The notes under the pieces are model-generated. The model was not told where the DNA came from, did not search any database, and saw only the letters and a program-made list of their open reading frames with translations. From the NCBI GenBank assembly GCA_963717475.1, contig OY970337.1, forward strand, positions 2,629,653 through 2,693,652: a stretch of DNA of 64,000 bases. The letters run 5' to 3'. Numbering within the stretch: the first letter of the stretch is position 1; every line of letters starts with the position of its first letter. Shown here piece by piece: positions 6,180 to 30,532 of the stretch. Both the position numbers and the translations under genes were made by a program. Source of the DNA: an uncultured Actinomycetes bacterium. Lineage in GTDB: Bacteria; Actinomycetota; Thermoleophilia; Gaiellales; Gaiellaceae.

Positions 6180-8337
6180 ATGGGCGTGACGGAGCGCCTA
6201 GCACGCGTGTCGAGCCGCCATCCGTGGCGGGTCATCCTCGGCTGGGTCGCGGCGATCGTGCTCGCGCTCGCCTCGGCGGCCATCCTGCTGCCCGGGAACC
6301 TGACGACGAACGGCCACGTGACGGGGAACCCGCCGTCGAAGCAGGCTGAGGATCTCTTCGGGCAGCGCTTCCCGCCGGACAAGAACGGCGTCGACGAGCT
6401 GATCGTCGTCCACTCCGCGGCCCACACCGCGGGCGATCAGGCGTTCACCTCCTTCCTCGCCGGCCTCCGGGACCAGGCGAACGCGACCGGCGTGGTCTAC
6501 CGGTACCTGCCGCCGGCCGTCTCGCACGACGGGCACACCATCCTGGTCGGCGTCCAGCGAAAGGCGGACGTCGACAAGCTCCTCGCCCTCGTCCAGGGCG
6601 TCGACGGGCAGGACGGCTTCAGCGTCGTGATGACGGGAGAGGGAACGCTCGACCACGACTTCAACGAGCTCTCGCAGCACGACCTGAAGTCGGGCGAGCT
6701 CGAGTTCGGCCTGCCCGCCGCGCTGATCATCCTCGTCCTCGTCTTCGGCGCGGTGGTCGCGGGCCTCGTGCCTCTGGTGATGGCGATCGTCGCGATCATC
6801 GTCGCGCTGGGGCTCTGCGGGCCGATCGCGGCGACGCTGTCGCTCTCGGTCTTCTTCGTGAACATGCTCACGGGGATGGGGCTGGCGCTCGGGATCGACT
6901 ATTCACTCTTCGTCGTCTCGCGCTACCGGGAGGAGCGGGCCGGCGGCCTGCCGCAGCTCGACGCGATCGCCGCGTCCGGCGCGACCGCGAGCCGCGCGGT
7001 GCTGTTCAGCGGCTCGATGTTCGTGATCGCGCTGAGCGGGATGCTGCTCGTGCCGTCCAACGTGATGAAGAGCCTTGCGACCGGCGCGATCGTGGTCGGG
7101 ATCGTCTCGGTGCTCGCGGCGCTCACGCTCCTGCCGGCGCTGCTCGGCGTCCTCGGAGACCGCGTGAACTCGCTTCGGGTTCCGTTCATGGGAAGCGGCG
7201 GCGGGGACAGCCGCTTCTGGGGCGCCGATCGTCCGCTACGTGATGCGCCGGCCGGTCCTGCCGCTGGTCGCGTTCACGGCGCTCCTGGTCGCCGTCGCGG
7301 TGCCGGTCCTCGGCCTCAACCTCGGGGCGAGCGGAGTGAGCACGCTTCCCGACAGGCTCGAGTCGAAGCAGGGCTTCGAGGCGCTCAACCGATACTTCCC
7401 GCAGGCGAGCTCGAGCCCGGCGCTGGTCGCGGTCGAGGGGAACGTGCGCTCGCCCGAAGTGCGCGCTGCGATCGGGCGGCTGCGGAACGAGTTCCGCGGC
7501 GACCCCGTCTTCGGGCGCAGCGACGTGCGTTTCGACAAGACGGGCGGGCTGGCCGCGATCGGAGTTCAGATCGGCGGCGACAAGACCGGGGAGCCCGCGC
7601 TCGACGCGGTTCGGCGTCTGCGATCGACGCTGATCCCGGAGGCGTTCCGTGGGACGGACGCGCAAGTGGTGGTCGGCGGCGACACGGCCGACAACGTCGA
7701 CTTCATCGACGCCATGAACGAGTGGCTGCCGTTCGTGTTCCTGTTCGTGCTGGGCCTGAGCTTCGTGCTGCTGACGATCGTCTTCCGCTCGATCGTGATC
7801 GCCGCGACGTCGATCGTGCTCAACCTGCTCTCGGTGACTGCGGCCTACGGGCTCGTGATCCTCGTCTTCCGGCACGGGGTCGGGAACGGGCTGCTCGGCT
7901 TCCAGCGCGTGCACGCGATCGAGGCCTGGGTGCCGCTGTTTTTGTTCTCGGTGCTGTTCGGGCTGTCGATGGACTACCAGGTGTTCCTGCTCAGCCGGAT
8001 CAAGGAGCGCTACGACCAGACCGGCTCGACCGTCGAGGCGGTCACGCACGGCGTCTCCTCGACCGCGCGCCTGATCACCGGCGCGGCGCTGATCATCGTC
8101 GCGGTCTTCGGCGGCTTCGCGATGGGCGACCTGGTCATGTTCCAGCAGATGGGCTTCGGGGTCGCGATCGCGCTGCTGATCGACGCGACGATCATCCGCT
8201 CGGTGCTCATGCCCGCGGCGATGCGGATCCTGGACCGCTGGAACTGGTACCTGCCGAGCTGGCTCGAGTGGCTGCCGCGCGTCGAGGTCGAGCGCGAGCG
8301 GCCGGAGGGCGTCGCGGTCCCGAGCGCCGGTTCCTGA
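6180..8337 (+). pseudogene. MMPL/RND-superfamily membrane transporter, split by an apparent +1 frameshift near 7227
   Basis: The 6180 frame gives ..GMGLALGIDYSLFVVSRYREE..LLPALLGVLGDRVNSLRVPFMGSGGGDSRFWGA, then Arg/Pro garbage. The frame of 7240 continues IVRYVMRRPVLPLVAF..FGLSMDYQVFLLSRIKERY..LMPAAMRILDRWNWYLP. These are the two repeated MMPL halves. Junction: ggc gcc G atc gtc cgc tac. Confidence 0.8.
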
Positions 8338-8363: not shown

Positions 8364-8894
8364 TTAGCCCGAAGGCGAGTTCGTGTGCAGATCCAAGCGC
8401 CAGTCATTGCAGCGCATGGGATGACCGGGCGGAAACTCGAAGTCGCACTCCTCCAGTAGCTCGAACCCGAGCTTGCGGCAGATCGCGTTCGAAGGCGCGT
8501 TCGCGACCGACGGAAACGCGTGGAGGTAGCGGTGCTTCCCTTCGGCGCGAACTGCGTCGATCGCCTGCTGGGTTGCCGTCCTCGCGATCCCGCGGCCCTG
8601 GAACTCGGGCAGGACCATCCACCCGGTCTCCCAGACGGTCAGGTCGCGCCAGTCCTTCTCCCAGTAGCCGACCGAGCCGGCGGACTCGCCGCTCGCCTCG
8701 TCGACGATCTTGAACATACGGCCCGTCCCGGTGTCGCCGATCCGCTCGTAGCGGCCCTGGCGCTCGGCGAGCTTCTCTTCGCTCTCCGGCCCGCCGAGGT
8801 GCTCGGTCATGACCGGGTCGCCCATCAGCCGGCGGAGCAAGGGGAGGTCGCCCTCGGCCCAGGCCTCGAGCCGTACGCGTGCCAGTTCGGCCAT
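8364..8894 (-). CDS. GNAT family N-acetyltransferase
   Basis: 176-aa ORF. The acetyl-CoA binding region WMVLPEFQGRGIARTATQQAID..NAPSNAICRKLGFE is typical of the GNAT fold. Confidence 0.75.
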   Translation of the reverse strand: MAELARVRLEAWAEGDLPLLRRLMGDPVMTEHLGGPESEEKLAERQGRYERIGDTGTGRMFKIVDEASGESAGSVGYWEKDWRDLTVWETGWMVLPEFQGRGIARTATQQAIDAVRAEGKHRYLHAFPSVANAPSNAICRKLGFELLEECDFEFPPGHPMRCNDWRLDLHTNSPSG

Positions 8895-8980
8895 CGGGAT
8901 TGGATACCAGGTGAGAGGCGGCGCGCTACGACCGGCTCGCTCCCAGGTCCTCCAGTCTTTAGCGCGACCCTACAACCGGT

Positions 8981-9394
8981 ATGAATGGGCGCATGGTTGC
9001 GGGCCGACAACTACGAGGACGCTGCGAGTGCCGGGCGGTTCGTTACCGCGTCACCGACGAGTTCCTCTACGCGGCCAACTGCCATTGCTCCAACTGCCGC
9101 GCCGGGACGGGATCGGCGTTCAAGGCGTTCGCGGGGATCGAGCGGGCGAAGCTCGAGGTAGTCGAGGGAGCGGACAGGCTGCTCGTCTGGGGCGAGGACG
9201 ACGCGAACCACACGCGCTGCGGCGTCTGCGGCTCGCTGCTCTACTCGGTGGTGCGCGAGGGCGAGTACGTGCACGTCGCGCTCGGGTCGCTCGTCGACCC
9301 CCCGTCGATCCGGCCGAGCGAGCACATCTTCGTCGGCTCGAAGGCGCCCTGGTTCGAGATCACGGACGACCTGCCGCAGAACGACGAGTACTAG
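8981..9394 (+). CDS. GFA (glutathione-dependent formaldehyde-activating / CENP-V-like) family zinc protein
   Basis: 137 aa. The Cys pattern CECRAVRY..CHCSNCR..CGVCGS is characteristic of the GFA domain. Confidence 0.75.
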   Translation: MNGRMVAGRQLRGRCECRAVRYRVTDEFLYAANCHCSNCRAGTGSAFKAFAGIERAKLEVVEGADRLLVWGEDDANHTRCGVCGSLLYSVVREGEYVHVALGSLVDPPSIRPSEHIFVGSKAPWFEITDDLPQNDEY

Positions 9395-9727
9395 CTAGCG
9401 GCGCGTCGCCACGCGAAGCCTGTTCCCGTCCGGATCTTCAAGCGCGCATTCCCGTCCCGCAAGGCCCTCTTCGTCGACCGAGACGCCGTATTCCTCCGCG
9501 ACAGCGTCGACGTCGCGGACGTAGAGATGGATGAGCGTGTTCGGTCGGGCATCGCCCTTGTGCTCGGAGAGGTACAGCCGGACGTCCCCGCGAGCCACCG
9601 AGACGAACCACGGAAAGCCGGGCTCGAACTGATGCTCCCACTCCTTGTCGAATCCGAGGCGCCCGTACCACGCGACGGCGCGCAGTGCGTCCTCGACGTA
9701 TAGGACAGGGACGACCTCCTCTTCCAC
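9395..9727 (-). CDS. VOC / glyoxalase-bleomycin-resistance family protein
   Basis: The 3' end of a long GC-artefact ORF looks coding: VEEEVVPVLYVEDALRAVAWYGRLGFDKEWEH..VRLYLSEHKGD..ALEDPDGNRLRV. Start assigned to GTG 9727 and is uncertain. Confidence 0.6.
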   Translation of the reverse strand: MEEEVVPVLYVEDALRAVAWYGRLGFDKEWEHQFEPGFPWFVSVARGDVRLYLSEHKGDARPNTLIHLYVRDVDAVAEEYGVSVDEEGLAGRECALEDPDGNRLRVATRR

Positions 9728-21569: not shown

Positions 21570-21642
21570 GCCGACGTAGCTCAGCTGGTAGAGCACTTCA
21601 CTCGTAATGAAGGGGTCCCCGGTTCGAGTCCGGGCGTCGGCT
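21570..21642 (+). tRNA. tRNA-Thr (anticodon CGU)
   Basis: GCCGACG acceptor stem pairs with CGTCGGC; D-arm TAGCTCAGCTGGTAGAGCA; anticodon stem CTTCA/TGAAG with loop CTCGTAA; T-arm CCCGGTTCGAGTCCGGG; discriminator T. No encoded CCA. Confidence 0.9.
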
Positions 21643-21729
21643 CTCCGGGATTTGCAGGCTCTCAACGCCCTCGCGGTGCTGGTCAGAGCCGGGGAGCTGA
21701 CCGATGGCCGGAGTTGCCCGAGCGCGTCG

Positions 21730-23745
21730 TCAGCCGTCGACCTTGACCCTCCCGCGCCCGAAGGCGTCGATGCGACCCCACCGGCCCGGGATGTCGAGAA
21801 GCTCCAGCCGGCCGATCGTTGTGGGGAGCGCGGGGTCGATGACGAGGTGCTCGCCCTCTGGCTCGAGCCCGAGCATCGTACGCAGGAAGAGGAGCGGGGC
21901 TCCAGTCGACCACGCCTGCGGGCTGCAGGCGGTCGGGTACTGGACCGGATACCTCGTCGCGGAGCGCTCGTAGCCGCCGAACGCCTCCGGCAGACGCCCG
22001 TCGAAGAACTCGGCCGCATCGAGGATCCCCGACGCGATTCGGGCAGCCTCCTCCTTGAACCCGTAACGGCGGAGACCCCAGGCGACGAACGAGTTGTCGA
22101 ACGGCCAGACGGTGCCGACGTGGTACCCGATCGGGTTATAGCGCCCCTCACCTTCGGCCAGCGTGCGCACGCCCCAGCCCGAGAACAGCCGCGGACCGAC
22201 CAGGTGACGCGCAACGGCCTTCGCCTTCGACTTGTCGACGATGCCGCTCCACAGCAAATGGCCGTTGTTCGACGTGAGCGCGTCAACCTGCTCCCCCTCG
22301 GCGTCGAGCGCGAGTGCGAAGTACTCGTCGTCCTCAACCCAGAAGTCCCGGTTGAAGCGCCGCTTCAGGGCGGCGGCCTGCTTCTCGAGCGCGTCCGCGA
22401 ACTCGGGGTCCTTCCACACGAGGCGCGCGAGCCGGGCGCCGCGCATCTTCGCGTCGTACGCGTATCCCTGAAGCTCGCAGGTGGCCCGCGGAAAGCCGGG
22501 GAGCTTGCCGTCCCGGAACGAGATGGAGTCCCACGAATCCTTCCAGCACTGGTTTTCGAGGCCGGTCTTCTCGTTGCGGCGCCTGTACCAGATGTAGCCG
22601 TCGCCCTGGAGGTCCGCGTAGTCGTCGATCCACGCGAGCGCCTTGCGCGCCTCGTACTCGACCGCGCGAACGAGCTTGCGGTCGCCCGTCCAGCGCTCGT
22701 ATTCGTCGAGCAACACGACGTAGAGCGGCGTCGCGTCGGCGGAGCCGTAATACGGCGAGTGCGGCCGCTCCTCGAAGGCCGTCATCTCGCCGTAGCGCAT
22801 CTCGTGGAGGATGCGCCCCGGATCCTCGTCGCGGAAGTCGTCCACACCGTTGCCCTGCCATTCGCCGAGCGCGGTGAGCGTGGTCGCCGCCAGCTCGGGC
22901 GCGAACGGCAAAGCCTGGAGGCTCGTGAAGATGCTGTCGCGGCCGAACATCGTCATGAACCAGGGCAGGCCGGCAGCAGGCAGGCTGTGTCCGCCCGCGA
23001 TCGGCGGCGAGAAGCGGAGCGCCGCTAGATCGACGAGGCTTCGATGGTAGGTCGCCTTCAGGGCGTCCGAGTCGCTCTCGAGCCGCGGAGCTACTTCGAG
23101 CCACTTCTCCAAATCGCGCTGCATGTTCCGCGGCGCGCGCCCGGTCACCGCGCTCGGGAGACCCGCGGCGACGGTCAGCTGCGTCGACCAGCTTCCATGC
23201 GGTGGAATCCGAATGCGGAAGGTCAGACCCTCCTTGTCAATCTTCGCACGGGTCGCGGCGGAGATCGTCGTCGTCCGCTTGTACGTCTCGCGCTCGTAGC
23301 CGAGCTCGAGGCTGCCGCTCCGAACGCGGGCCGAGTACGTTCCCTTCTTCTTCAGCGCGTCCTTGACCTCGAACAGGTCGGCGAAGTCGCTGGCAGCCTC
23401 GACGCGGACGATGATGCTCGCCGGCTTTTCATCGTGGTTGAGGATCGTGAGCTCCTCGGTGAAGCCCTCGCCGACGCTTCGCCGGCGAATCACCGAGAGC
23501 TTCGCGTCGATGTAGACCGTGCCGGTACCGGGCACGAGAAAGAACCGTGTCTCGAAGTACTGCAGGTCGTCGGTCGAAAGCGCGTTCATCCGCTGGCCGT
23601 TCAGCGTCAGCACCCAACGGGAAAGAAAGCGGGTGTCGAAGGAGAAGAGGCCCGTGGGATCGGTCAGCGACGCCTCGATGTCGCCGCGCTCGTCGCTGAC
23701 GACGAAGGTGTTGCCGTCCAAGATCTTGACGAGCCCGTCGCTCAT
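21730..23745 (-). CDS. Amylo-alpha-1,6-glucosidase / glycogen-debranching-enzyme family protein (GDE_N_bis + GDE_C)
   Basis: Start at ATG 23745 (SD GGAAGGAG): MSDGLVKILDGNTFVVSDERGDI.. then ..GLPWFMTMFGRDSIFTSLQ..HEMRYGEM..PYYGSADATPLYVVLL..GYHVGTVWPFDNSF. The ORF-track start at 23850 is probably an upstream extension. Confidence 0.8.
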   Translation of the reverse strand: MSDGLVKILDGNTFVVSDERGDIEASLTDPTGLFSFDTRFLSRWVLTLNGQRMNALSTDDLQYFETRFFLVPGTGTVYIDAKLSVIRRRSVGEGFTEELTILNHDEKPASIIVRVEAASDFADLFEVKDALKKKGTYSARVRSGSLELGYERETYKRTTTISAATRAKIDKEGLTFRIRIPPHGSWSTQLTVAAGLPSAVTGRAPRNMQRDLEKWLEVAPRLESDSDALKATYHRSLVDLAALRFSPPIAGGHSLPAAGLPWFMTMFGRDSIFTSLQALPFAPELAATTLTALGEWQGNGVDDFRDEDPGRILHEMRYGEMTAFEERPHSPYYGSADATPLYVVLLDEYERWTGDRKLVRAVEYEARKALAWIDDYADLQGDGYIWYRRRNEKTGLENQCWKDSWDSISFRDGKLPGFPRATCELQGYAYDAKMRGARLARLVWKDPEFADALEKQAAALKRRFNRDFWVEDDEYFALALDAEGEQVDALTSNNGHLLWSGIVDKSKAKAVARHLVGPRLFSGWGVRTLAEGEGRYNPIGYHVGTVWPFDNSFVAWGLRRYGFKEEAARIASGILDAAEFFDGRLPEAFGGYERSATRYPVQYPTACSPQAWSTGAPLLFLRTMLGLEPEGEHLVIDPALPTTIGRLELLDIPGRWGRIDAFGRGRVKVDG

Positions 23746-24131
23746 CGTCGGCTCCTTCCGGTCCGTGCGGGTGTGCGTGGCTTGGCTGTCCGCCGCTTGG
23801 CGGTCGCTGGGCCAGGGAGGATTCGACGGAAGAGGACGAGCAGCCGCCAATCCCCTTCGATCGTCAGCCTGCCACGCAGAACCTCGGCGACTGCGCTCGC
23901 CTTGCCGCTGGCGAGCCTGTCAAAGACCGCCTTACTGGCGACGAGCGTGGAGTCGGCGGCGCCGCTCGAACGCGAGACGCTGACATCGCCCTTGTCGATC
24001 ATGACGAGCCAAGTCTCGGTCTTCTTGCCGCCGGCGATGTCGAACCGCATCGTTCCGCTCGCGTTCCGGAGCAGAGGCTCATGTCCGCGTTGCGCGAGAT
24101 CGTCGAAGAACTCAGCCGTGAAATCGGTCAT
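23742..24131 (-). CDS. SCP2 sterol-binding domain protein
   Basis: ATG 24131 (SD GGGAGGAG): MTDFTAEFFDDLAQRGHEPLL..DSTLVASKAVFDRLASGKASAVAEVLRGRLTIEGD. ATGA overlap with the downstream glucosidase gene. Confidence 0.65.
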   Translation of the reverse strand: MTDFTAEFFDDLAQRGHEPLLRNASGTMRFDIAGGKKTETWLVMIDKGDVSVSRSSGAADSTLVASKAVFDRLASGKASAVAEVLRGRLTIEGDWRLLVLFRRILPGPATAKRRTAKPRTPARTGRSRR

Positions 24132-24535: not shown

Positions 24536-25948
24536 GTGAGCGAAGGCTCTGCATCTGTGAGCGAGCTGATGACCCCGGATCGGCCGCTTGCGTCCGCGCG
24601 TCGGCTGATCCTGCCGCTCGCGCTCGCGCAGTTCATCTGCAGCTTCGCCGGATCGAATATGAACGTGATGATCGCCGACATCAGTGACGACCTGGACACG
24701 ACCGTCAAGGGCGTGCAGACCGCGATCACATTGTTCCTCTTGATCATGGCGATTCTGATGATCCCGTGCAGCAAGCTGACCGACCGGTGGGGCCGGAAGC
24801 GCTGCTTCCTGCTCGGCCTGACGCTGTACGGGATCGGCGCGCTGCTGAGCGCGGTGTCGCCGAACCTCGGCGTCCTGATCGTCGGCAACTCGGTCTTCGA
24901 GGGAGTCGGCACCGCGCTGCTGATCCCGCCGGTGTACATCCTGGCGACGCTCTGGTTCACCGGCACGACGTCCCGCGCCTGGGCATTCGGCGCGATCAGC
25001 GGGTTGGGAGGCATCGGCGCCGCCGCGGGCCCGTTGATCGGCGGCCTGATCACGACCGCGATCAGCTGGCGAGCCGCGTTTGTGTTCCAGGCGATCGTCG
25101 TCGCGGCGATCGTGCTCCTGAGCCGGAAGCTCGCCGACCCGCTGGCGGCCGACCCGAAGCGGCCGTTCGACGGAATCGGCGCGGTTCTGTCGGCGGTGGG
25201 GATGTTCTCCGTCGTCTTCGGGATCCTCCAGGCCGGCAGCAACAACACGCTCTTCTTCGGCTTCCTCGCGATCGGAGCCGCGTTCCTGGCTGGATTCTTC
25301 CTCTATATCCGGCGACGCGAGCGCGCAGGGAAGGAGGCGCTGCTCTCGACCGGGCTGTTCCGGAACCGCACCTGCAACCTCGCCTTGGTGACCCAGAACA
25401 TCCAGTGGCTGCTCCTCATGGGCATCTCGTTCGTCGTCTCCGTCTTCCTGCAGGAGGTACGTGGCTACAACGCGATCCAGACGGGCGTCGTATTCACCGC
25501 CGCGACGGTCGGCATCCTCCTCTCGTCCTTCGCCCAGCAGCGGCTCGCGAAGCGGTTCGCGCAGCGGACGCTGATCATCGCTGGGTTCGTCGTCACCCTT
25601 GCCGGCATCGGGCTCCTCCTCGGCTTCGTTCACACCTCTTCTCGGGTCGTCGCCTTCGTGCCGGGGCTGTTCCTGATCGGCTTGGGCGTCGGCGGGATGC
25701 TGACGCCGTCCGTCAACGTGGTGCAGTCGAGCTTCCCGGAGGAGCTCCAGGGCGAGATCTCCGGCCTGTCGCGCGCAATCTCGAACCTCGGCTCGTCCTT
25801 CGGGACTGCGATCGCGGGGACGATCCTCGTCTCCGTCGTCGCGCTCGGCACCCGCTCCTACGCGGTCGCGCTGATCGTCCTCGTCGGAATCGGCCTGCTC
25901 GGCCTCGTCGCCGCCCTGCGCCTGCCGGCCAGTATCGAACGCACGTAG
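24536..25948 (+). CDS. MFS transporter, DHA2 (EmrB/QacA-like, 14-TM) drug/H+ antiporter family
   Basis: 470 aa. KLTDRWGRKRCFLLGL (motif A-like), ..GALLSAVSPN..; about 14 hydrophobic helices. Start is GTG 24536 or ATG 24569. Confidence 0.8.
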   Translation: MSEGSASVSELMTPDRPLASARRLILPLALAQFICSFAGSNMNVMIADISDDLDTTVKGVQTAITLFLLIMAILMIPCSKLTDRWGRKRCFLLGLTLYGIGALLSAVSPNLGVLIVGNSVFEGVGTALLIPPVYILATLWFTGTTSRAWAFGAISGLGGIGAAAGPLIGGLITTAISWRAAFVFQAIVVAAIVLLSRKLADPLAADPKRPFDGIGAVLSAVGMFSVVFGILQAGSNNTLFFGFLAIGAAFLAGFFLYIRRRERAGKEALLSTGLFRNRTCNLALVTQNIQWLLLMGISFVVSVFLQEVRGYNAIQTGVVFTAATVGILLSSFAQQRLAKRFAQRTLIIAGFVVTLAGIGLLLGFVHTSSRVVAFVPGLFLIGLGVGGMLTPSVNVVQSSFPEELQGEISGLSRAISNLGSSFGTAIAGTILVSVVALGTRSYAVALIVLVGIGLLGLVAALRLPASIERT

Positions 25949-26010: not shown

Positions 26011-26271
26011 TTAGTTGTCCGGGTCGACTTGCGCCGCCTGGGCCGCCGCCCTGTCGGCTTCCTTGCGCTCGACGGCCGCGCGGTCGGCGAGCTCCTGCGC
26101 CTGCACCTCGCGCTCCTTCGCGCTGCGGTGCCGCTCCGTCGCCTCCTGGCGGAGCTCCTGCGCCTGCTCGCGCTGCCGGCGCTTCTGTCGTGCCTGGCGG
26201 CTGCCGAGCACGATGACCGCGAGCACGACGACGGCTGCGATTGCGATCACGATCCAGATCCAAGTGGACAT
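26011..26271 (-). CDS. 86-aa membrane-anchored charged helical protein
   Basis: ATG 26271 with SD GAAGGAGAG. MSTWIWIVIAIAAVVVLAVIVLG followed by the K/R/E/Q-rich helix RQKRRQREQAQELRQEATERHRSAKEREVQAQEL... Confidence 0.55.
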   Translation of the reverse strand: MSTWIWIVIAIAAVVVLAVIVLGSRQARQKRRQREQAQELRQEATERHRSAKEREVQAQELADRAAVERKEADRAAAQAAQVDPDN

Positions 26272-26382: not shown

Positions 26383-26976
26383 ATGCTTGCGCCTGGAGAG
26401 AGCGCGAGGGGGAGTTGCGTGTCGATTTTGGTGTTGACGCTTCGGTTCGCGGTGGCGACCGTGCTTGCGGTGGCCGCGAATGCGAAGGCTCGGGACTTCG
26501 AAACCTTCCAGAGGACGGTACGGGCGCTCGTGCCTCGAGGCGCCGGTCTCGTTTCGGCGGGGGTGATCGCGATCGAAGGCGCGCTCGCAGCGCTGCTGGT
26601 CTCGGGCCTCGCTCCCAGCGCCGTCGCGGCGGCGACCGTCGTCCTCTTCCTCGGCTTCTCCGCGCTTTCCGTCTGGGCCATGCGCAGCGGCGTGCACGTC
26701 AGCTGCAACTGCTTCGGCTCGAGCGACCGCGAGCTCGGTAGGGACAGCCTCGAGACATCGCTGCTGCTCGCGGCCGCCTCGCTCGCCTACCTGGCGCTGC
26801 TCCAGCGGACGCAGCCGTCACTGACCCTCGGCGAGGCGCCGCTCGCGGCGTTGCTGGGAGTCACCGCGGTCATGGGCGCGCGCTGGCTGCTCGCCCTTCG
26901 CGACCTGGTTCCGATCGTCCGCCAGCGCCGGTCGCTCGATCGCGAGCTCGCCGAGCCGGCGCGGAGCGCATCGTGA
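26383..26976 (+). CDS. MauE/DoxX-family redox-associated membrane protein
   Basis: The 3' part of GC-artefact ORF 24766..26976 reads ..ILVLTLRFAVATVLAVAANAKARDFETFQRTVRAL..VIAIEGALAALLV..VVLFLGFSALSVWAMRSGVHVSCNCFGS.. It has 4 TM helices and the CxCFG motif typical of MauE. Start is ATG 26383 or GTG ~26419. Confidence 0.65.
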   Translation: MLAPGESARGSCVSILVLTLRFAVATVLAVAANAKARDFETFQRTVRALVPRGAGLVSAGVIAIEGALAALLVSGLAPSAVAAATVVLFLGFSALSVWAMRSGVHVSCNCFGSSDRELGRDSLETSLLLAAASLAYLALLQRTQPSLTLGEAPLAALLGVTAVMGARWLLALRDLVPIVRQRRSLDRELAEPARSAS

Positions 26977-27566
26977 CCGTCCTGATCGTCGCCTGCCTCG
27001 TCGCGCTGGCGGTGATCGTCGTCGTCCAGGGGCTCGTGCTGCTCGAGATGGTCCGGCAGACGTCACAGATCAGGCGCGTGCTCGACCTCGACGACCGCCC
27101 CGTCCCGATCAGCCTCGGCGATCTTGCCGGCCGGCCCCTGCCGGAGCCCGCTCGCAGCATCTGGCCCGAGAACGCCGACGGCGTCTTCGTCTTGCTGAGC
27201 ACGGACTGCGCCACGTGCAGGCTCGTCGCGGCCGGCCTGCGGGACCTACTCGACCGGTTTGTCGACAAGAGGATCGTCACGGTGCTCCAGGCGTACCACG
27301 AGGAGGAGGCGGCGGAGCTGGTGGCCGCTTCCGGCCTGGCCGGCGACGAGGTCGTGATCGATCTCGACCGGAGCTACGGCGAGGCGTTCGGGATCGCGCT
27401 CCGCCCTGCCGCGGTCGTCGTCCGCGACGGGATCCTCAGCGAAGGCGCGGCCGTCCGGAACGCGCGCCAGCTCCAGCAGCTGCTCGAGGCGCTCGGACCC
27501 TCGAGCGACACAGATCTGTCCGAAGTCCCCCGCGTATCAGCCCTGACCACTGGAGGTGCCAGGTGA
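26973..27566 (+). CDS. Membrane-anchored thioredoxin-fold protein with CxxC (TlpA/MauD-like)
   Basis: 197 aa. N-terminal TM is MTVLIVACLVALAVIVVVQGLVLL. The redox motif is LLSTDCATCRLV, and a cis-Pro-type region is AFGIALRPAAVVV. GTGA start/stop overlap with the MauE-like gene. Confidence 0.65.
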   Translation: MTVLIVACLVALAVIVVVQGLVLLEMVRQTSQIRRVLDLDDRPVPISLGDLAGRPLPEPARSIWPENADGVFVLLSTDCATCRLVAAGLRDLLDRFVDKRIVTVLQAYHEEEAAELVAASGLAGDEVVIDLDRSYGEAFGIALRPAAVVVRDGILSEGAAVRNARQLQQLLEALGPSSDTDLSEVPRVSALTTGGAR

Positions 27567-27961
27567 CGCTCTACGAACGGTTCGAACGAGTAAGCGAGCT
27601 CGACATGACGAAGACGACCCGTGGCCGGCTCCTGGCGCGCGCGGGCAAGGTCTGCGTCGGAATCGCCGCCGGCGCGGCGGGGCTGGCAAGCGTCGGGCAA
27701 GCCCGCGCCCAGGACGGGACGCGGACGGTCGGCTGCTGTGCGCTCGCGTACAACAACGACTGCACGAACTGCTCGGGCCGCGGCTACGACTGCGGGTCCG
27801 GCTGCAACCGGTGGGCCTGGTACTGCGTCGACAGCGCACGTCGGGTCTGGCTCTGCGGCGAGTGCTACACGGGTGGAAGTTGCAGTGGCTGCTCGTGCGG
27901 GCGGATCGCAGTCACCCAGGGCAGCCACGCCGTGCCGCGAATCAAGGGCTGGCGCCAGTGA
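27563..27961 (+). CDS. Secreted Cys/Trp-rich small protein (132-aa precursor; predicted 83-aa mature part with 12 Cys, 4 Trp)
   Basis: GTG 27563 overlaps the upstream stop (GTGA), with GGAGG 6 nt upstream; the alternative start is ATG 27605. Signal-like segment MTKTTRGRLLARAGKVCVGIAAGAAGLASVGQARA|QDG. Mature part: VGCCALAYNNDCTNCSGRGYDCGSGCNRWAWYCVDSARRVWLCGECYTGGSCSGCSCGR... Confidence 0.6.
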   Translation: MTLYERFERVSELDMTKTTRGRLLARAGKVCVGIAAGAAGLASVGQARAQDGTRTVGCCALAYNNDCTNCSGRGYDCGSGCNRWAWYCVDSARRVWLCGECYTGGSCSGCSCGRIAVTQGSHAVPRIKGWRQ

Positions 27962-28032
27962 CGCTGGGCGCCGCCTGCGCGCTCGCGTTCCTCGCCGCAC
28001 TTCCGCAGCTCTGCAGCCCCTGAGGGGCGTCG

Positions 28033-28638
28033 ATGGTGGGGGTCATCGGTCCCCTCGTGCAGGGGAAACGTGAGTTACGAGGCTCGGGCAGGTCGATCGC
28101 GCTCTTCACGCTGGGCGCGATGACCGGCGCTGCGCTCACCGGCGTGGTGATCGGCGTGCTCGCCGGCGCCGTGCGCCTCGCGTGGGACGTGCCGGCGCTC
28201 GCCGTCGGAGCGGCCGGCTGCCTCCTGCTGCTCGCGGATCTCGGCCTCTTCGGCCTGCGCACGCCCACGCTTCTCCGGCAGACCTGCTCGACCTGGTACC
28301 GGGAAGAAGGCAGGCAGTCCGTCTGGGCGCTCTGGGGCTTCGATCTCGGACTCGGCTTCTCGACGATCCGGCTGAGCTCGCTCTACTGGCTGATGGTGCT
28401 GTTCGTCGCGGCGTTCGTCTCGCCGTGGCTCGCTCCGGTCGTCCTTGCCTGCTACGGGCTCGGGCTCGGCGTCGCCTTCGGAGCCGCGCTGGTCGCCCAG
28501 GCTCGGAGCACGCCGAAGCCGGGCGCCTCGCCGGGGCTCGGGTTGCTCCACGCGGCGAGCCGGGTCAGGCTCGCGTCGGTCGCGTTCCTCGGAGTCGTCT
28601 CGATCGCGATCGTCATCAGCGGGGCGTCGTGGTTCTAG
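28033..28638 (+). CDS. Polytopic (about 6 TM) membrane protein with two intramembrane Cys; possible CcdA/DsbD_2-like thiol-disulfide transporter
   Basis: 201 aa with helices ..ALFTLGAMTGAALTGVVIGVLAG.., ..VGAAGCLLLLADLGLFG.., ..LYWLMVLFVAAFV.., ..VVLACYGLGLGVAFGAAL.. Family assignment is only by general resemblance. Confidence 0.45.
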   Translation: MVGVIGPLVQGKRELRGSGRSIALFTLGAMTGAALTGVVIGVLAGAVRLAWDVPALAVGAAGCLLLLADLGLFGLRTPTLLRQTCSTWYREEGRQSVWALWGFDLGLGFSTIRLSSLYWLMVLFVAAFVSPWLAPVVLACYGLGLGVAFGAALVAQARSTPKPGASPGLGLLHAASRVRLASVAFLGVVSIAIVISGASWF

Positions 28639-29051
28639 ACAACGGAGCCGCTCCGGCGCTCTCGCCCGACGACCCGATCTGCGTCGTCACCAGGATCACG
28701 TTCGGCCGCTGGCGGTCGATCCCCGGCGCCCTGCTCACCTTCCGGCGGCTGCGGCGAGTCGGGCGGCGCGAGGTCCCGGGCCTGGTCGACGCGCACTTCC
28801 GCGTCTGCAAGGGCGCGACGCTGATGTTCTTCTCCGTCTGGAAGGACGAGCTCTCCCTCTTGCAGTTCACGACGCTCGAGGCGCACGTGAACGCCGTGCG
28901 CTGGACGATCCGGCACCGCGGGGAGGTCTGGTCCGGGGTCTTCCGGCTCACGGGAACCTCGTCGATGAGCAAGCCCTGGATCGGGAAGGTCCGGCAGTGG
29001 GTGCCCCTGCTTCCGGCCGACCCGACCGGGCCGCCGGCGCGTCTCCGTTGA
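28629..29051 (+). CDS. Small ABM/Dabb-fold-like protein (DUF3291/DUF4188-like)
   Basis: GTG 28629 overlaps the upstream gene by 10 nt. ..VVTRITFGRWRSIPGALLTFRRLRRVGRREVPGLVDAHFRV..LMFFSVWKDELSLLQFTTLEAHVNAVRW.. resembles monooxygenase-like DUF4188/DUF3291 proteins. Low certainty. Confidence 0.4.
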   Translation: MVLDNGAAPALSPDDPICVVTRITFGRWRSIPGALLTFRRLRRVGRREVPGLVDAHFRVCKGATLMFFSVWKDELSLLQFTTLEAHVNAVRWTIRHRGEVWSGVFRLTGTSSMSKPWIGKVRQWVPLLPADPTGPPARLR

Positions 29052-30532
29052 GCGCGGACTCTGCTCTCGCGAACCTGCGGCAGATCGACCACATCGTCGT
29101 CCTGATGATGGAGAACCGGTCGTTCGACCACATGCTCGGGTACCTGAAGCGCGACGGCCTGCCGGACGTGAACGGGCTGGACGGCGACGAGTGGAACGAG
29201 GACGACCGCGGGAAGCGGATCACGGTCTTTCCGTTCAGGCCCGACCAGACCGCGTTCCACCGGCCGGGGCAGCCGTTCGACGAGAGCCTCGACCCCCAGC
29301 ACGGGCCGTCATCGGTCGCCGAGCAGCTCGCAGACGGCAACGGCGGGTTCGTCAAGAACTTCATCCGCGAGAAGAGCCCGCCCGAGGAGTGGCGCTCGCT
29401 GCCGATGGGCCACTACACGGCCGAGCACCTCCCGGTCTACGACTTCCTCGCGCGCACGTACTGCGTGTGCGACGCCTGGCACAGCTCGATCCCCGGCGAC
29501 ACCTGGCCGAACCGCCTCTACTCGATCGCGGCACGGGCGGCCGATCCCGTCGGACGCAAGCTGAGGGTGTTCGAGCGCCTCGCCCGTCTCTTCCGCGGCG
29601 AGGGGCTGCTGCAGAAGCTCGAGAAGGAGCCGATCTACGCCGTCGAGGCGTTCACCCGGCACCTCGCGGACGACGACTGGCGCTGGTACTCGTACGACCC
29701 GGCGACGCTGCGCCTGGCGGACCGGCGTTACCGCGACTTCCGTCAGATCGGCGGCAAGAACTTCGCCTACTTCGACCGGAAGGCGATCCCGCGCGCGGAG
29801 CGAGCCCTGAAGGAGCTCGTCGAGCTGCGCGACAGCTTCCTCGACGACGCCGTCAAGAGCGGGTCGCACGGCCTGCGCGCCGTCTCCTGGATCGACCCGA
29901 ACTTCATCGACCACCGCGTCTTCGAGTCGACCTCGAACGACGACCATCCGCCGTCCGACATCCTCGCCGGACAGGAGCTCGTGCTCGAGCTCTACCACGC
30001 GCTCGTCAACAGCCCGAACTGGGAGAACACGCTGCTCGTCATCACCTACGACGAGCACGGCGGCTTCTACGACCACGTTGTGCCGCCCGCGGTCCCGGCC
30101 GGCGACCCGAGCCCCTTCCCGACCTTCGGCGTGCGCGTGCCGGCGCTGGTCGTCGGGCCGCGGGTGCGCAACTTCGTGTGCCACGACTTCTTCGACCACA
30201 CGTCGCTGATGAAGACGATCCTGCTCCGCTTCGCGCGTGACCCGCAGCAGGCGATCCGGAAGATGGGGCCGCGGGTCGAGCGGGCGCAGCATCTGGGCGC
30301 CGCGCTCGCCGATGTGCCGCGGGCCGACCTTCCTGACCACCGCGGGCTCTTCGATCGCTTCGAGGAGTGGCGCAAGGTCGCGCGGGCCGAGCGGCGCGCG
30401 GTCCAGCGCGGGGAAGCGTCCCCGGATCCCGACGGCGCCGGGCGGAACTGGGAGCCCACGGAGCTCCAGCGGGACCTCATCCGCGCCGCGGCCGCGCTGC
30501 GGAAGGAGGGCCTCCCGCCCGGGACGCCCTGA
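29048..30532 (+). CDS. Phosphoesterase family protein (phospholipase C / AcpA acid phosphatase family, PF04185-like)
   Basis: TTG 29048 (TTGA overlap with the upstream stop). ..IDHIVVLMMENRSFDHMLGYL..DPQHG..GDTWPNRLY..VITYDEHGGFYDHVVPP..FGVRVPALVVGP.. are canonical phosphoesterase motifs. No obvious signal peptide. Confidence 0.8.
   Translation: MSADSALANLRQIDHIVVLMMENRSFDHMLGYLKRDGLPDVNGLDGDEWNEDDRGKRITVFPFRPDQTAFHRPGQPFDESLDPQHGPSSVAEQLADGNGGFVKNFIREKSPPEEWRSLPMGHYTAEHLPVYDFLARTYCVCDAWHSSIPGDTWPNRLYSIAARAADPVGRKLRVFERLARLFRGEGLLQKLEKEPIYAVEAFTRHLADDDWRWYSYDPATLRLADRRYRDFRQIGGKNFAYFDRKAIPRAERALKELVELRDSFLDDAVKSGSHGLRAVSWIDPNFIDHRVFESTSNDDHPPSDILAGQELVLELYHALVNSPNWENTLLVITYDEHGGFYDHVVPPAVPAGDPSPFPTFGVRVPALVVGPRVRNFVCHDFFDHTSLMKTILLRFARDPQQAIRKMGPRVERAQHLGAALADVPRADLPDHRGLFDRFEEWRKVARAERRAVQRGEASPDPDGAGRNWEPTELQRDLIRAAAALRKEGLPPGTP

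Follow-up and report, generated by a model that had tools for sequence, protein, structure and literature searches.

What do homologues of the methylamine dehydrogenase (MADH) maturation genes mauE and mauD do in a region from which the enzyme itself is missing, and what is the small Cys-rich protein encoded directly behind them? The question is raised by six co-directional open reading frames (ORFs), called here P1 to P6, at positions 26383–30532 of a stretch of 64,000 nucleotides (the window, about 70% G+C) from contig OY970337.1 of an uncultured Actinomycetes bacterium of the Gaiellaceae. In mau clusters the order is mauE-mauD-mauA, and MauE and MauD are both needed for making MauA, the small subunit, which carries six disulfides and the Trp-derived cofactor tryptophan tryptophylquinone (TTQ). 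A first-pass annotation of the window had proposed that Mau-type machinery is re-used here for a different extracytoplasmic Cys-rich protein, and this core idea has come out stronger, owing to the homology of three gene products to MauE, MauD and MauF and to the linkage of the genes in related loci. We think it probable that the locus is a self-contained MauF/E/D-type thiol/selenol maturation cassette, which would oxidatively fold a new Cys-rich mini-protein exported by the twin-arginine translocation (Tat) pathway. One of its membrane proteins, P4, is most likely a MauF-type selenoprotein. The five genes that matter for this proposal are the following.

26383..26976, + strand: P1, MauE-family membrane protein, 197 amino acids (aa); from Pfam PF07291, the CXC-F-G motif and hhalign
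26973..27566, + strand: P2, MauD-like membrane-anchored thioredoxin-fold protein, 197 aa; from a PDB profile match and hhalign
27563..27961, + strand: P3, precursor of a Cys-rich mini-protein, 132 aa; from its conserved N-terminus and homologue clusters
27958..28638, + strand: P4, re-annotated as a MauF-like polytopic membrane protein, 226 aa; from hhalign and hmmsearch against MauF
28629..29051, + strand: P5, cytoplasmic ABM-like protein, 140 aa; from Pfam ABM at family level

A conserved five-gene cassette

Direct reading of the sequence agrees with the positions and junctions first given for the six ORFs, with a single correction. GTGA at 26973–26976 is the overlap of the P1 stop with the P2 start, and GTGA at 27563–27566 that of the P2 stop with the P3 start. 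P3 ends with the stop at 27959–27961 and the next ATG lies at 28033, which had been taken as a 71-nt gap before P4. The apparent spacer is in fact coding in the P4 frame, as seen from a conserved peptide and coding-type substitutions, and the P4 start is GTG 27958, which shares a GTGA with the P3 stop, the same type of junction as the others. P4 and P5 overlap by 10 nt (GTG 28629 versus TAG 28636–28638), and TTGA at 29048–29051 forms the P5/P6 junction, so that four junctions are start/stop overlaps of the GTGA or TTGA kind, besides the 10-nt overlap.

The conserved unit is formed by the five genes P1 to P5 and occurs in more than 90 related loci (12 loci from Gaiellaceae metagenome-assembled genomes (MAGs), four remote loci and 75 further metagenome loci obtained by a scan seeded with a conserved P4 motif). 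Of the six-gene unit originally proposed, these five stand, whereas P6 is absent from most related cassettes. The order P1-P2-P3-P4-P5 is identical in 12/12 independent loci of the closer kind, and the species genomes bearing P3 (n = 10) are all MAGs of Gaiellaceae or of "uncultured Actinomycetes". Four loci recovered by a superfamily search again contain all five genes, with a P3 that is 32–45% identical. Presence was counted in those loci whose contig reaches far enough to be testable, and amounted to 27/27 for P1, 31/33 for P2, 44/49 for P3 and 56/58 for P5. Four of the five loci lacking a P3 match (two near-identical pairs) are truncated or decayed, and the fifth, L093, holds an intact Cys-rich ORF that was missed by the hidden Markov model (HMM). 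The expected linkage of the Cys-rich ORF to MauE and MauD homologues is therefore strict among these >90 loci, and the recurrence of the gene order in every sufficiently long related locus is more than chance.

The linkage is kept even where the order changes. P5 has moved ahead of P1 in six remote loci and between P2 and P3 in one; the remote orders are P5-P1-P2-P3-P4-G7 (L090, L093, L096–L099, L104) and P1-P2-P5-P3-P4-G7 (L092), G7 being a further recurrent gene described below. The contigs with a relocated ABM-like gene have 47–65% G+C. Since some cassette contigs have only 47–51% G+C, the cassette is not confined to one lineage. In the plasmid collection, tblastn with P3, P4 and P5 gave no match.

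Some copies are degenerate. An internal deletion in P3 is found at about 6790–6990 of L044, and the same in L045, while P1, P2 and P3 are truncated around a tRNA-Thr at 6400–7000 of L074, and the same in L076; P4 and its TGA codon (see below) are retained in all of them. As decayed copies exist, the cassette seems to be dispensable. Downstream of the L093 cassette, the opposite strand encodes a flavoprotein (PF02441) and an HTH-TPR regulator.

The claim that mauB, mauG and amicyanin are missing from the window is borne out, tblastn with the Paracoccus proteins MauB, MauG, MauA, MauJ and amicyanin giving only E > 0.01 over the 64 kb. The search for mauB and mauG was negative both in the window and in related loci amounting to 270 kb. 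The word "orphan" used for the mauE-mauD pair needs a correction, for an orphan MauE is the norm, as only about 10% of MauE-bearing species have MauA (bioRxiv 10.64898/2026.03.05.709764).

The MauE-like and MauD-like proteins

Canonical mau clusters from plasmids were used as the comparison set for MauE, MauD, MauF and MauA. The assignment of P1 as a MauE-like protein with a CNCFG motif is confirmed by its match to Pfam PF07291 (E = 4.2e-19, 69.5 bits, gathering cut-off 27) and by hhalign against MauE (97%). The motif, C108-N-C110-F-G at nt 26704–26718, is conserved in 12/12 P1 orthologues and sits in the loop between helices 3 and 4, while K35 and E64 align with the conserved MauE Lys of helix 1 and Glu of helix 2. 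An alternative start of P1 is GTG 26419. CXC-F-G has been shown experimentally to be the active site of MauE, which replaces DsbB in Escherichia coli and whose CXC is essential (bioRxiv 10.64898/2026.03.05.709764).

P2 is, as had been read, a membrane-anchored thioredoxin-fold protein with a CATC motif (N-terminal anchor at aa 3–21; CxxC C79-A-T-C82 at nt 27207–27218). C79, C82 and P145 are invariant, and P145 is in the position of the thioredoxin cis-proline. The P2 family profile finds almost exclusively thioredoxins in the PDB, with the CxxC aligned and a best E of 2.3e-4. Against MauD it aligns over the full length including the anchor (hhalign 98%, P = 2.6e-13, 170 columns), and no match at E ≤ 1 was obtained to the MauD equivalog model TIGR02661, whose cut-off is 188.6 bits and to which true MauD scores 383.7 bits. 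By plain hmmsearch, the family HMMs of the cassette also match the MauF and MauD ORFs of the canonical mau clusters. In hhalign cross-controls, P4 against MauE gave P = 0.56 and P1 against MauF P = 0.12.

P4, a MauF relative with an in-frame TGA

MauF has been on record since the 1990s, to our knowledge solely as a membrane protein that is required for the small subunit of MADH. No curated model exists for it, and membership of P4 was judged by profile similarity. P4 had been taken from its ATG and regarded as a six-transmembrane-helix protein with two intramembrane Cys of DsbD-like character; those Cys are not conserved and the similarity is to MauF instead. A DsbD/CcdA-type protein was rejected as a candidate on the same ground and because P4 has no Pfam match. 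The features concerned are the following.

28033–28638, + strand: P4 as first read, no family match
28021–28023, + strand: in-frame TGA, candidate selenocysteine codon, in a C-S-P-U-G-A-S (CxxU) motif; comparative evidence
28022..28056, + strand: hairpin, candidate bacterial selenocysteine insertion sequence (SECIS); covariation and synonymous-site constraint

Even without the extension, P4 reaches 95% against MauF in hhalign (P = 2.8e-8), and reversed and shuffled controls give P ≥ 0.07. With it, the P4 family reaches 97.9% and P = 5.3e-13 over 173 columns. In hmmsearch, MauF ORFs are matched by the P4 HMM in both Paracoccus (5e-8) and Methylobacterium (3e-6). The former gap encodes, in the P4 frame, the conserved V-T-L-G-A-A-C-A-L-A-F-L-A-A-L-P-Q-L-C-S-P, followed by TGA (codon 22 from GTG 27958), G-A-S and the old ATG.

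A TGA stands at this codon in 83/83 relevant loci, never TAA, TAG or a sense codon, and it is invariant in 63/63 distinct nucleotide versions of the surrounding 25 codons, from contigs with 47–72% GC. The flanks evolve as coding sequence. The residues Gln(−5), Ser(−2) and Gly(+1) never vary, although they use two, three and four codons, respectively. In the P4 frame, synonymous and non-synonymous codon differences stand in a ratio of 0.90, versus 0.07–0.08 in the other two frames. Between the TGA and the old ATG are three codons that likewise have conserved residues with synonymous variation, including Ser AGC versus UCN. Moreover, in several remote lineages the old ATG is replaced by CUG, AUU, AUC or CUC, and therefore no start codon is found there.

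The TGA aligns with the invariant Cys of the motif W-S-P-C-G-Y-S-S in MauF of five species. A second TGA form is present in a MauF-like ORF of Thermomicrobium roseum, which reads L-W-S-P-TGA-G-Y-S-M. In the T. roseum DSM 5159 megaplasmid NC_011961 (L019), this ORF lies at about 8690–9349, with the TGA upstream of the annotated start of the hypothetical protein WP_012643071.1, and is in a cluster with MADH-light-chain-like genes and a gene for a MauE fusion protein of 596 aa. The product in this cultured strain is probably a selenoprotein that has been mis-annotated.

For the hairpin directly 3' of the TGA, positions are numbered from the U of UGA. Positions 2–7 pair with 31–36 in the lower helix and 15–18 with 24–27 in the upper one, the apical loop (columns 19–23) being GGNGU in the family alignment. 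In 25 distinct sequences, 87% of the cells are paired, versus 42–58% in slid controls; compensatory changes are found in 4/4 upper-helix pairs, and 0/500 shuffles reach the observed values. The native hairpin folds more stably than synonymous recodings in 25/25 loci (mean z −1.72, down to −5.8 in low-GC loci), compared with −0.14 for control windows of the same gene. The window copy has its upper helix in a shifted register, 10–16 with 23–29 and loop UGGGGG. This shifted register, when considered alone, shows no covariation signal and was rejected as the family structure.

This combination of features is what comparative analysis normally takes as the mark of a selenocysteine codon. P4 is thus a probable selenoprotein, because of the invariant TGA, the coding conservation on its flanks, the covarying hairpin, the alignment with the MauF Cys and the T. 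roseum WSP-TGA-GYS. A pair of selenocysteine (Sec) and Cys at the same position is a classic marker of a catalytic redox residue, and its occurrence at the MauF motif points to one residue and to a redox role in MauF. In the literature, we found no paper that connects MauF or Mau proteins with selenium. Both Actinobacteria and Chloroflexi are known to decode Sec, and MauF is not among the 25 bacterial selenoprotein families listed (PMC1794560).

The proposed Cys-rich client protein

P3 was found to have 64 homologue clusters at 52–93% identity, all unnamed and nearly all metagenomic, and an exhaustive HMM search with the family extended these to 92 representative clusters of 100–135 aa with the same architecture. 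Judged by sequence, these clusters form a superfamily that has not been described before, with P3 as its founder, a Tat-type leader and 8–16 Cys. No Pfam, NCBIfam or PDB sequence match was obtained for it. The conservation of the N-terminus MTLYERFEK supports the GTG start at 27563.

27563..27709, + strand: P3 leader, aa 1–49; superfamily alignment
27617–27634, + strand: twin-arginine-type motif, aa 19–24, T-R-G-R-L-L in the window copy
27710..27958, + strand: P3 mature domain, 83 aa; 12 Cys, superfamily alignment, AlphaFold2

The leader consists of an extended conserved n-region, the motif, an Ala/Gly-rich h-region and an AxA site. In 83 sequences of the superfamily the motif is S/T, R (79/83), R (72/83), any residue, F/L and L. 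The signal peptide and the 83-aa mature part with 12 Cys and four Trp, as first read, hold good, with predicted cleavage after A47-R-A49. Against the MauA leader, hhalign gives P = 3e-5 with the family profile and P = 4e-10 with the superfamily profile, and generic Tat leaders used as controls give P = 3e-5 to 6e-3. A MauA-specific leader similarity was rejected since the generic controls score nearly as well; the segment is counted only as a Tat leader with a long n-region.

The Cys of the mature domain are C58, C59, C67, C70, C77, C81, C88, C98, C101, C107, C110 and C112. Universal in the superfamily are C58, C59, C67, C77, W86, C88, C98, C101 and C110. W84, W86 and W96 are invariant in P3, W86 being the only Trp that is universal across the superfamily. 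The variable Cys come and go pairwise, for example C70 with C112 (r = 0.72), which fits disulfides in P3; in about one third of the superfamily members the number of Cys is odd. AlphaFold2 predicts a beta-rich core at residues 55–120 with a predicted local distance difference test score (pLDDT) of about 80–85, and Foldseek found no match to the model in the PDB below E = 1, MADH light chains included.

The statement that P3 is not obviously alignable to MauA also proved correct. P3 matches neither PF02975 nor TIGR02659 at E ≤ 1, to which true MauA scores 180 and 399 bits, and hhalign of the mature domains gives P = 0.38 and 0.1, within the range of shuffled controls. A local likeness C-P-x-G...W-x-C to the TTQ-Trp region of MauA was considered and set aside, as it is not significant (P = 0.1, within shuffled controls), and the region of the second TTQ Trp has no counterpart in P3. 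From these comparisons, P3 is not a demonstrable MADH light chain; what it shares with one is the type of targeting. The suggestion of a cofactor or cross-link in the Cys-rich product is without direct support in this analysis. A second Cys-rich precursor copy, 54% identical to P3 of the window, occurs at 9607–9981 of L008, directly after P5 in one Actinomycetes MAG.

Accessory and neighbouring genes

The ABM-like character given to P5 is borne out at family level. The family has invariant C18 and H86 and the motif TSSMSKPWIG, and 31/32 members match Pfam ABM at E ≤ 0.1 (best 2.1e-5); the window copy itself scores 13.1 bits against ABM PF03992, whose gathering threshold is 23.1. P6 and the remaining features are described by these lines.

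29048..30532, + strand: P6, phospholipase C / acid phosphatase-type phosphoesterase, 494 aa; Pfam PF04185, 7.5e-65
G7 examples: L004 2977–3306; L007 5099–5497; L096 3504–4067; L026 9613–9975; about 30 further loci
tRNA-Thr(CGT): window 21570–21643; L001 8316–8388; L005 6390–6463; L017 6405–6478; L063 5028–5104; L074 6460–6532
Cupredoxin and cytochrome c sites: L008 15794–16036; L010 98–292; L007 1461–2018; L001 3869–4369; positions not conserved

The Pfam phosphoesterase match agrees with the phosphoesterase class first assigned to P6. Coupled to P5 by TTGA in the window, P6 is otherwise restricted to the closest relatives (L001/L011, L005 and L006) and is a lineage-specific add-on or passenger outside the conserved cassette. 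Elsewhere P5 is followed by an S8 peptidase, a beta-propeller or other genes, and most often by G7. The latter is a sixth recurrent gene of 110–190 aa, located after P5 or P4 in about 36 related loci and absent from positions 1–64000 of the window, where the phosphoesterase takes its place. Its motif is K-[IV]-L-W ... G-x-x-L-D-G ... P-S ... V-P-x-x-G-C-W-x-L, and its N-terminus is signal- or lipoprotein-like in remote loci. No Pfam or PDB match was found for G7, and PDB sequence searches with the profiles of P3, P4, P5 and G7 yielded nothing useful.

In several relatives, a tRNA-Thr(CGT) gene is located upstream of the cassette at a distance of about 0.4 kb; in the window this distance is 4.8 kb. 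Between the two, the window contains a 729-aa minus-strand ORF (21730–23919) and a major facilitator superfamily transporter (24536–25948), which suggests an insertion at this spot. Directly upstream of P1 is a divergent ORF on the minus strand (26011–26268) for a membrane-anchored, Arg/Glu/Ala-rich protein of about 86 aa (MSTWIWIVIAIAAVVVLAVIVLG...), which is also present in L001 (8428–8688). Cupredoxin-like sequences (tblastn to amicyanin about 1e-10) and small cytochrome c genes were observed within a few kb of some cassettes. The Rfam scan of the window returned a single tRNA only, and the promoter and terminator scan nothing above chance.

Proposed mechanism

In the mechanism that we propose, P3 would be made with its long twin-arginine leader, a type recognized from the sequence, and would be exported via Tat. 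Its 12 Cys may then be oxidised outside the membrane by the CxxC of the anchored thioredoxin-fold protein P2, which in turn would be re-oxidised by the CXC-F-G of P1, with electrons passing to the quinone pool as in other MauE proteins. The putative selenocysteine of P4, in (C)-S-P-U-G at or within the first membrane helix, would be a third redox centre. Its redox role is suggested by the Sec/Cys pair; whether this means disulfide shuffling, proof-reading or reduction of the client is a guess. P5 might act in the cytoplasm before export, either as a modifying oxygenase or as a chaperone of the leader or precursor. The predicted product is a folded mini-protein of about 8.6 kDa.

A more far-reaching version has two parts that would both have to hold. 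MauF would be a redox enzyme through its S-P-C-G Cys (Sec here), making MauF/E/D a general three-centre membrane thiol/selenol relay with the MADH light chain as one client only, and P3 would carry a protein-derived modification on W86 (W-x-C), installed by the ABM-like protein before Tat export, which would make it a stand-alone mini-quinoprotein or a Cys-Trp cross-linked protein. We regard this combination as speculative and quite improbable.

Weighing the evidence

Several observations weigh against the proposed cassette or against parts of it. GAGGGG six nt before ATG 28033 in the window could be a ribosome-binding site, and a 21-aa upstream ORF with re-initiation at 28033 could apply to the window copy alone. 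No tRNA-Sec is present in the window or in the related cassette loci, and no Rfam SECIS family matched around the TGA. As regards topology and targeting, the positive-inside count does not clearly put the P1 CXC loop or the P2 thioredoxin domain outside, the Tat motif of the window copy is R-G-R and not R-R, and the resemblance between the P3 and MauA leaders is mostly generic Tat signal, the n-region alone giving P = 0.003. The AlphaFold2 model of P5 is poor (pLDDT 45).

Among the other explanations, an unlikely one that partly overlaps with oxidative maturation is that the same cassette makes a secreted bioactive bacteriocin-like peptide or one like the peptides that are made on ribosomes and modified after translation (RiPPs), the leader-bearing P3 being tailored by P1, P2, P4 and P5. 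Streptomyces mauE/mauD genes beside precursors with ≥8 Cys have been proposed as candidate new RiPP families (decRiPPter; Kloosterman et al. 2020, PMC7794033), and the behaviour of the cassette would suit such a product: it stands in differing genomic contexts, integrase or transposase genes adjoin the remote cassettes L027 and L028, tRNA-Thr adjoins it in several loci, L008 has a second precursor copy and decayed copies occur. However, the conserved set lacks an immunity gene, an ABC exporter, a leader peptidase and a RiPP recognition element, an 83-aa mature part is large for a RiPP, and the Streptomyces precursors are unrelated in sequence and have no Tat motif. Nor is P3 more divergent than the accessory genes (45% identity to L026 versus 36–46%). 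Much less credit, and with it a very low probability, goes to P3 as a metal or cluster protein that receives its Fe-S, Zn or Cu in the cytoplasm and is therefore exported folded by Tat, with CxxC and CxxCxC as ligands. Tat signals are typical of cofactor-containing proteins and C67-x2-C70, C98-G-E-C101 and C107-x2-C110-x-C112 do resemble metal knuckles, but thiolate ligands would hardly call for an oxidising MauE/MauD pair dedicated to them, the universal Cys number only eight, the variable ones change in pairs and not in fours, and about one third of the members have an odd number.

Two readings remain, and we find each of them hard to accept. P1 and P2 might be the general disulfide system of the cell, with MauE standing in for DsbB and the Cys-rich ORF a mere neighbour or one client among others. 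MauE is indeed a generalist DsbB-like oxidase that is widespread without MauA (bioRxiv 10.64898/2026.03.05.709764). Yet strict linkage and translational coupling of the five genes persist across deep divergence and differing G+C contents, the Gaiellaceae contain divergent cassettes that each have an E/D/F set of their own (L027 being placed in the family by its elongation factor EF-G), and the decayed copies show that the cassette is dispensable. We rate this reading as very unlikely. The last one, that P3 is a very divergent light chain of a TTQ-type amine dehydrogenase with mauB and mauG elsewhere in the genome, is largely refuted, and we give it almost no weight. The E-D-'A' gene order, the long Tat leader as in MauA, the same number of 12 Cys and the local C-P-x-G...W-x-C resemblance near the TTQ tryptophan position are what speak for it. 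They are outweighed by the light-chain models, the hhalign and Foldseek comparisons and the missing region of the second TTQ Trp, all given above, as well as by the lack of mauB and mauG in the window and in the 270 kb of related loci, mauB being adjacent in all canonical clusters compared.

Relation to known systems

If the oxidative maturation cassette is as we propose, its meaning goes beyond the window. The Sec form of P4 suggests what the long-unexplained MauF does, and MauF, MauE and MauD seem to travel together in one module, which has no fewer than two unrelated clients. Such a module would fit the view of MauE as a widespread disulfide oxidase and would extend that proposal to MauD and MauF (bioRxiv 10.64898/2026.03.05.709764). 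With P4, aerobic Actinomycetota and Chloroflexota from soil would gain a probable new family of membrane selenoproteins, which is probably mis-annotated as a shorter "hypothetical protein" even in the cultured T. roseum. In addition, the P3 superfamily brings Tat-type proteins with 8–16 Cys to the Gaiellaceae, an uncultured lineage recovered in this analysis from many soil metagenomes. We think that the cassette is of relevance for the fields of oxidative folding, MADH biogenesis and selenoproteins.

The Mau-type machinery was already known, and so was the location of MauE/MauD beside Cys-rich precursors in Streptomyces, with unrelated precursors (PMC7794033). What appears new is a full F/E/D trio paired with another client family. 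The superfamily of that client, the ABM-like gene and G7 that are linked to it, and a MauF in Sec form appear new as well.

The closest known system is the mauFBEDACJG(MN) cluster of Paracoccus denitrificans and Methylobacterium, in that homologues of MauF, MauE and MauD are all in the cassette, the order E-D-client is the same, the client resembles MauA in its long twin-arginine leader and its many Cys (12 in the window copy, as in MauA), and S-P-C-G of MauF corresponds to S-P-U-G in P4. The cassette differs by having no MauB, MauG, amicyanin or MauJ and by the addition of the ABM-like gene and, in most relatives, of G7. The individual proteins depart from their counterparts as well: the mature domain of P3 is unrelated to MauA by sequence or fold search and about 50 aa shorter; P4 lacks the first ~60 residues of MauF, its gene comes after that of the client whereas mauF is upstream of mauB, and it would have Sec for Cys; P2 stays below the MauD equivalog model. 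With the MauE studied recently, P1 has in common the CXC-F-G motif, the Lys/Glu pair, a thioredoxin-fold partner and the absence of MauA; that MauE is presented as a generalist, while P1 belongs to a client-specific, coupled cassette with MauD- and MauF-like partners (bioRxiv 10.64898/2026.03.05.709764).

The decRiPPter families resemble the cassette in having MauE, with or without MauD, beside a small Cys-rich precursor and without a mau cluster. Their precursors, in contrast, are 57–66 aa long, have no Tat motif and cannot be aligned to P3, and neither a MauF-like or ABM-like partner nor selenocysteine is reported for them (PMC7794033). Finally, P4 can be compared with the thiol-oxidoreductase selenoproteins, such as the DsbA-like, DsbG-like and thioredoxin families (Zhang et al. 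2006, PMC1794560), with which it shares a UGA in a CxxU motif, Cys-containing homologues and a 3' hairpin, and from which it differs in being a polytopic membrane protein of the MauF type.

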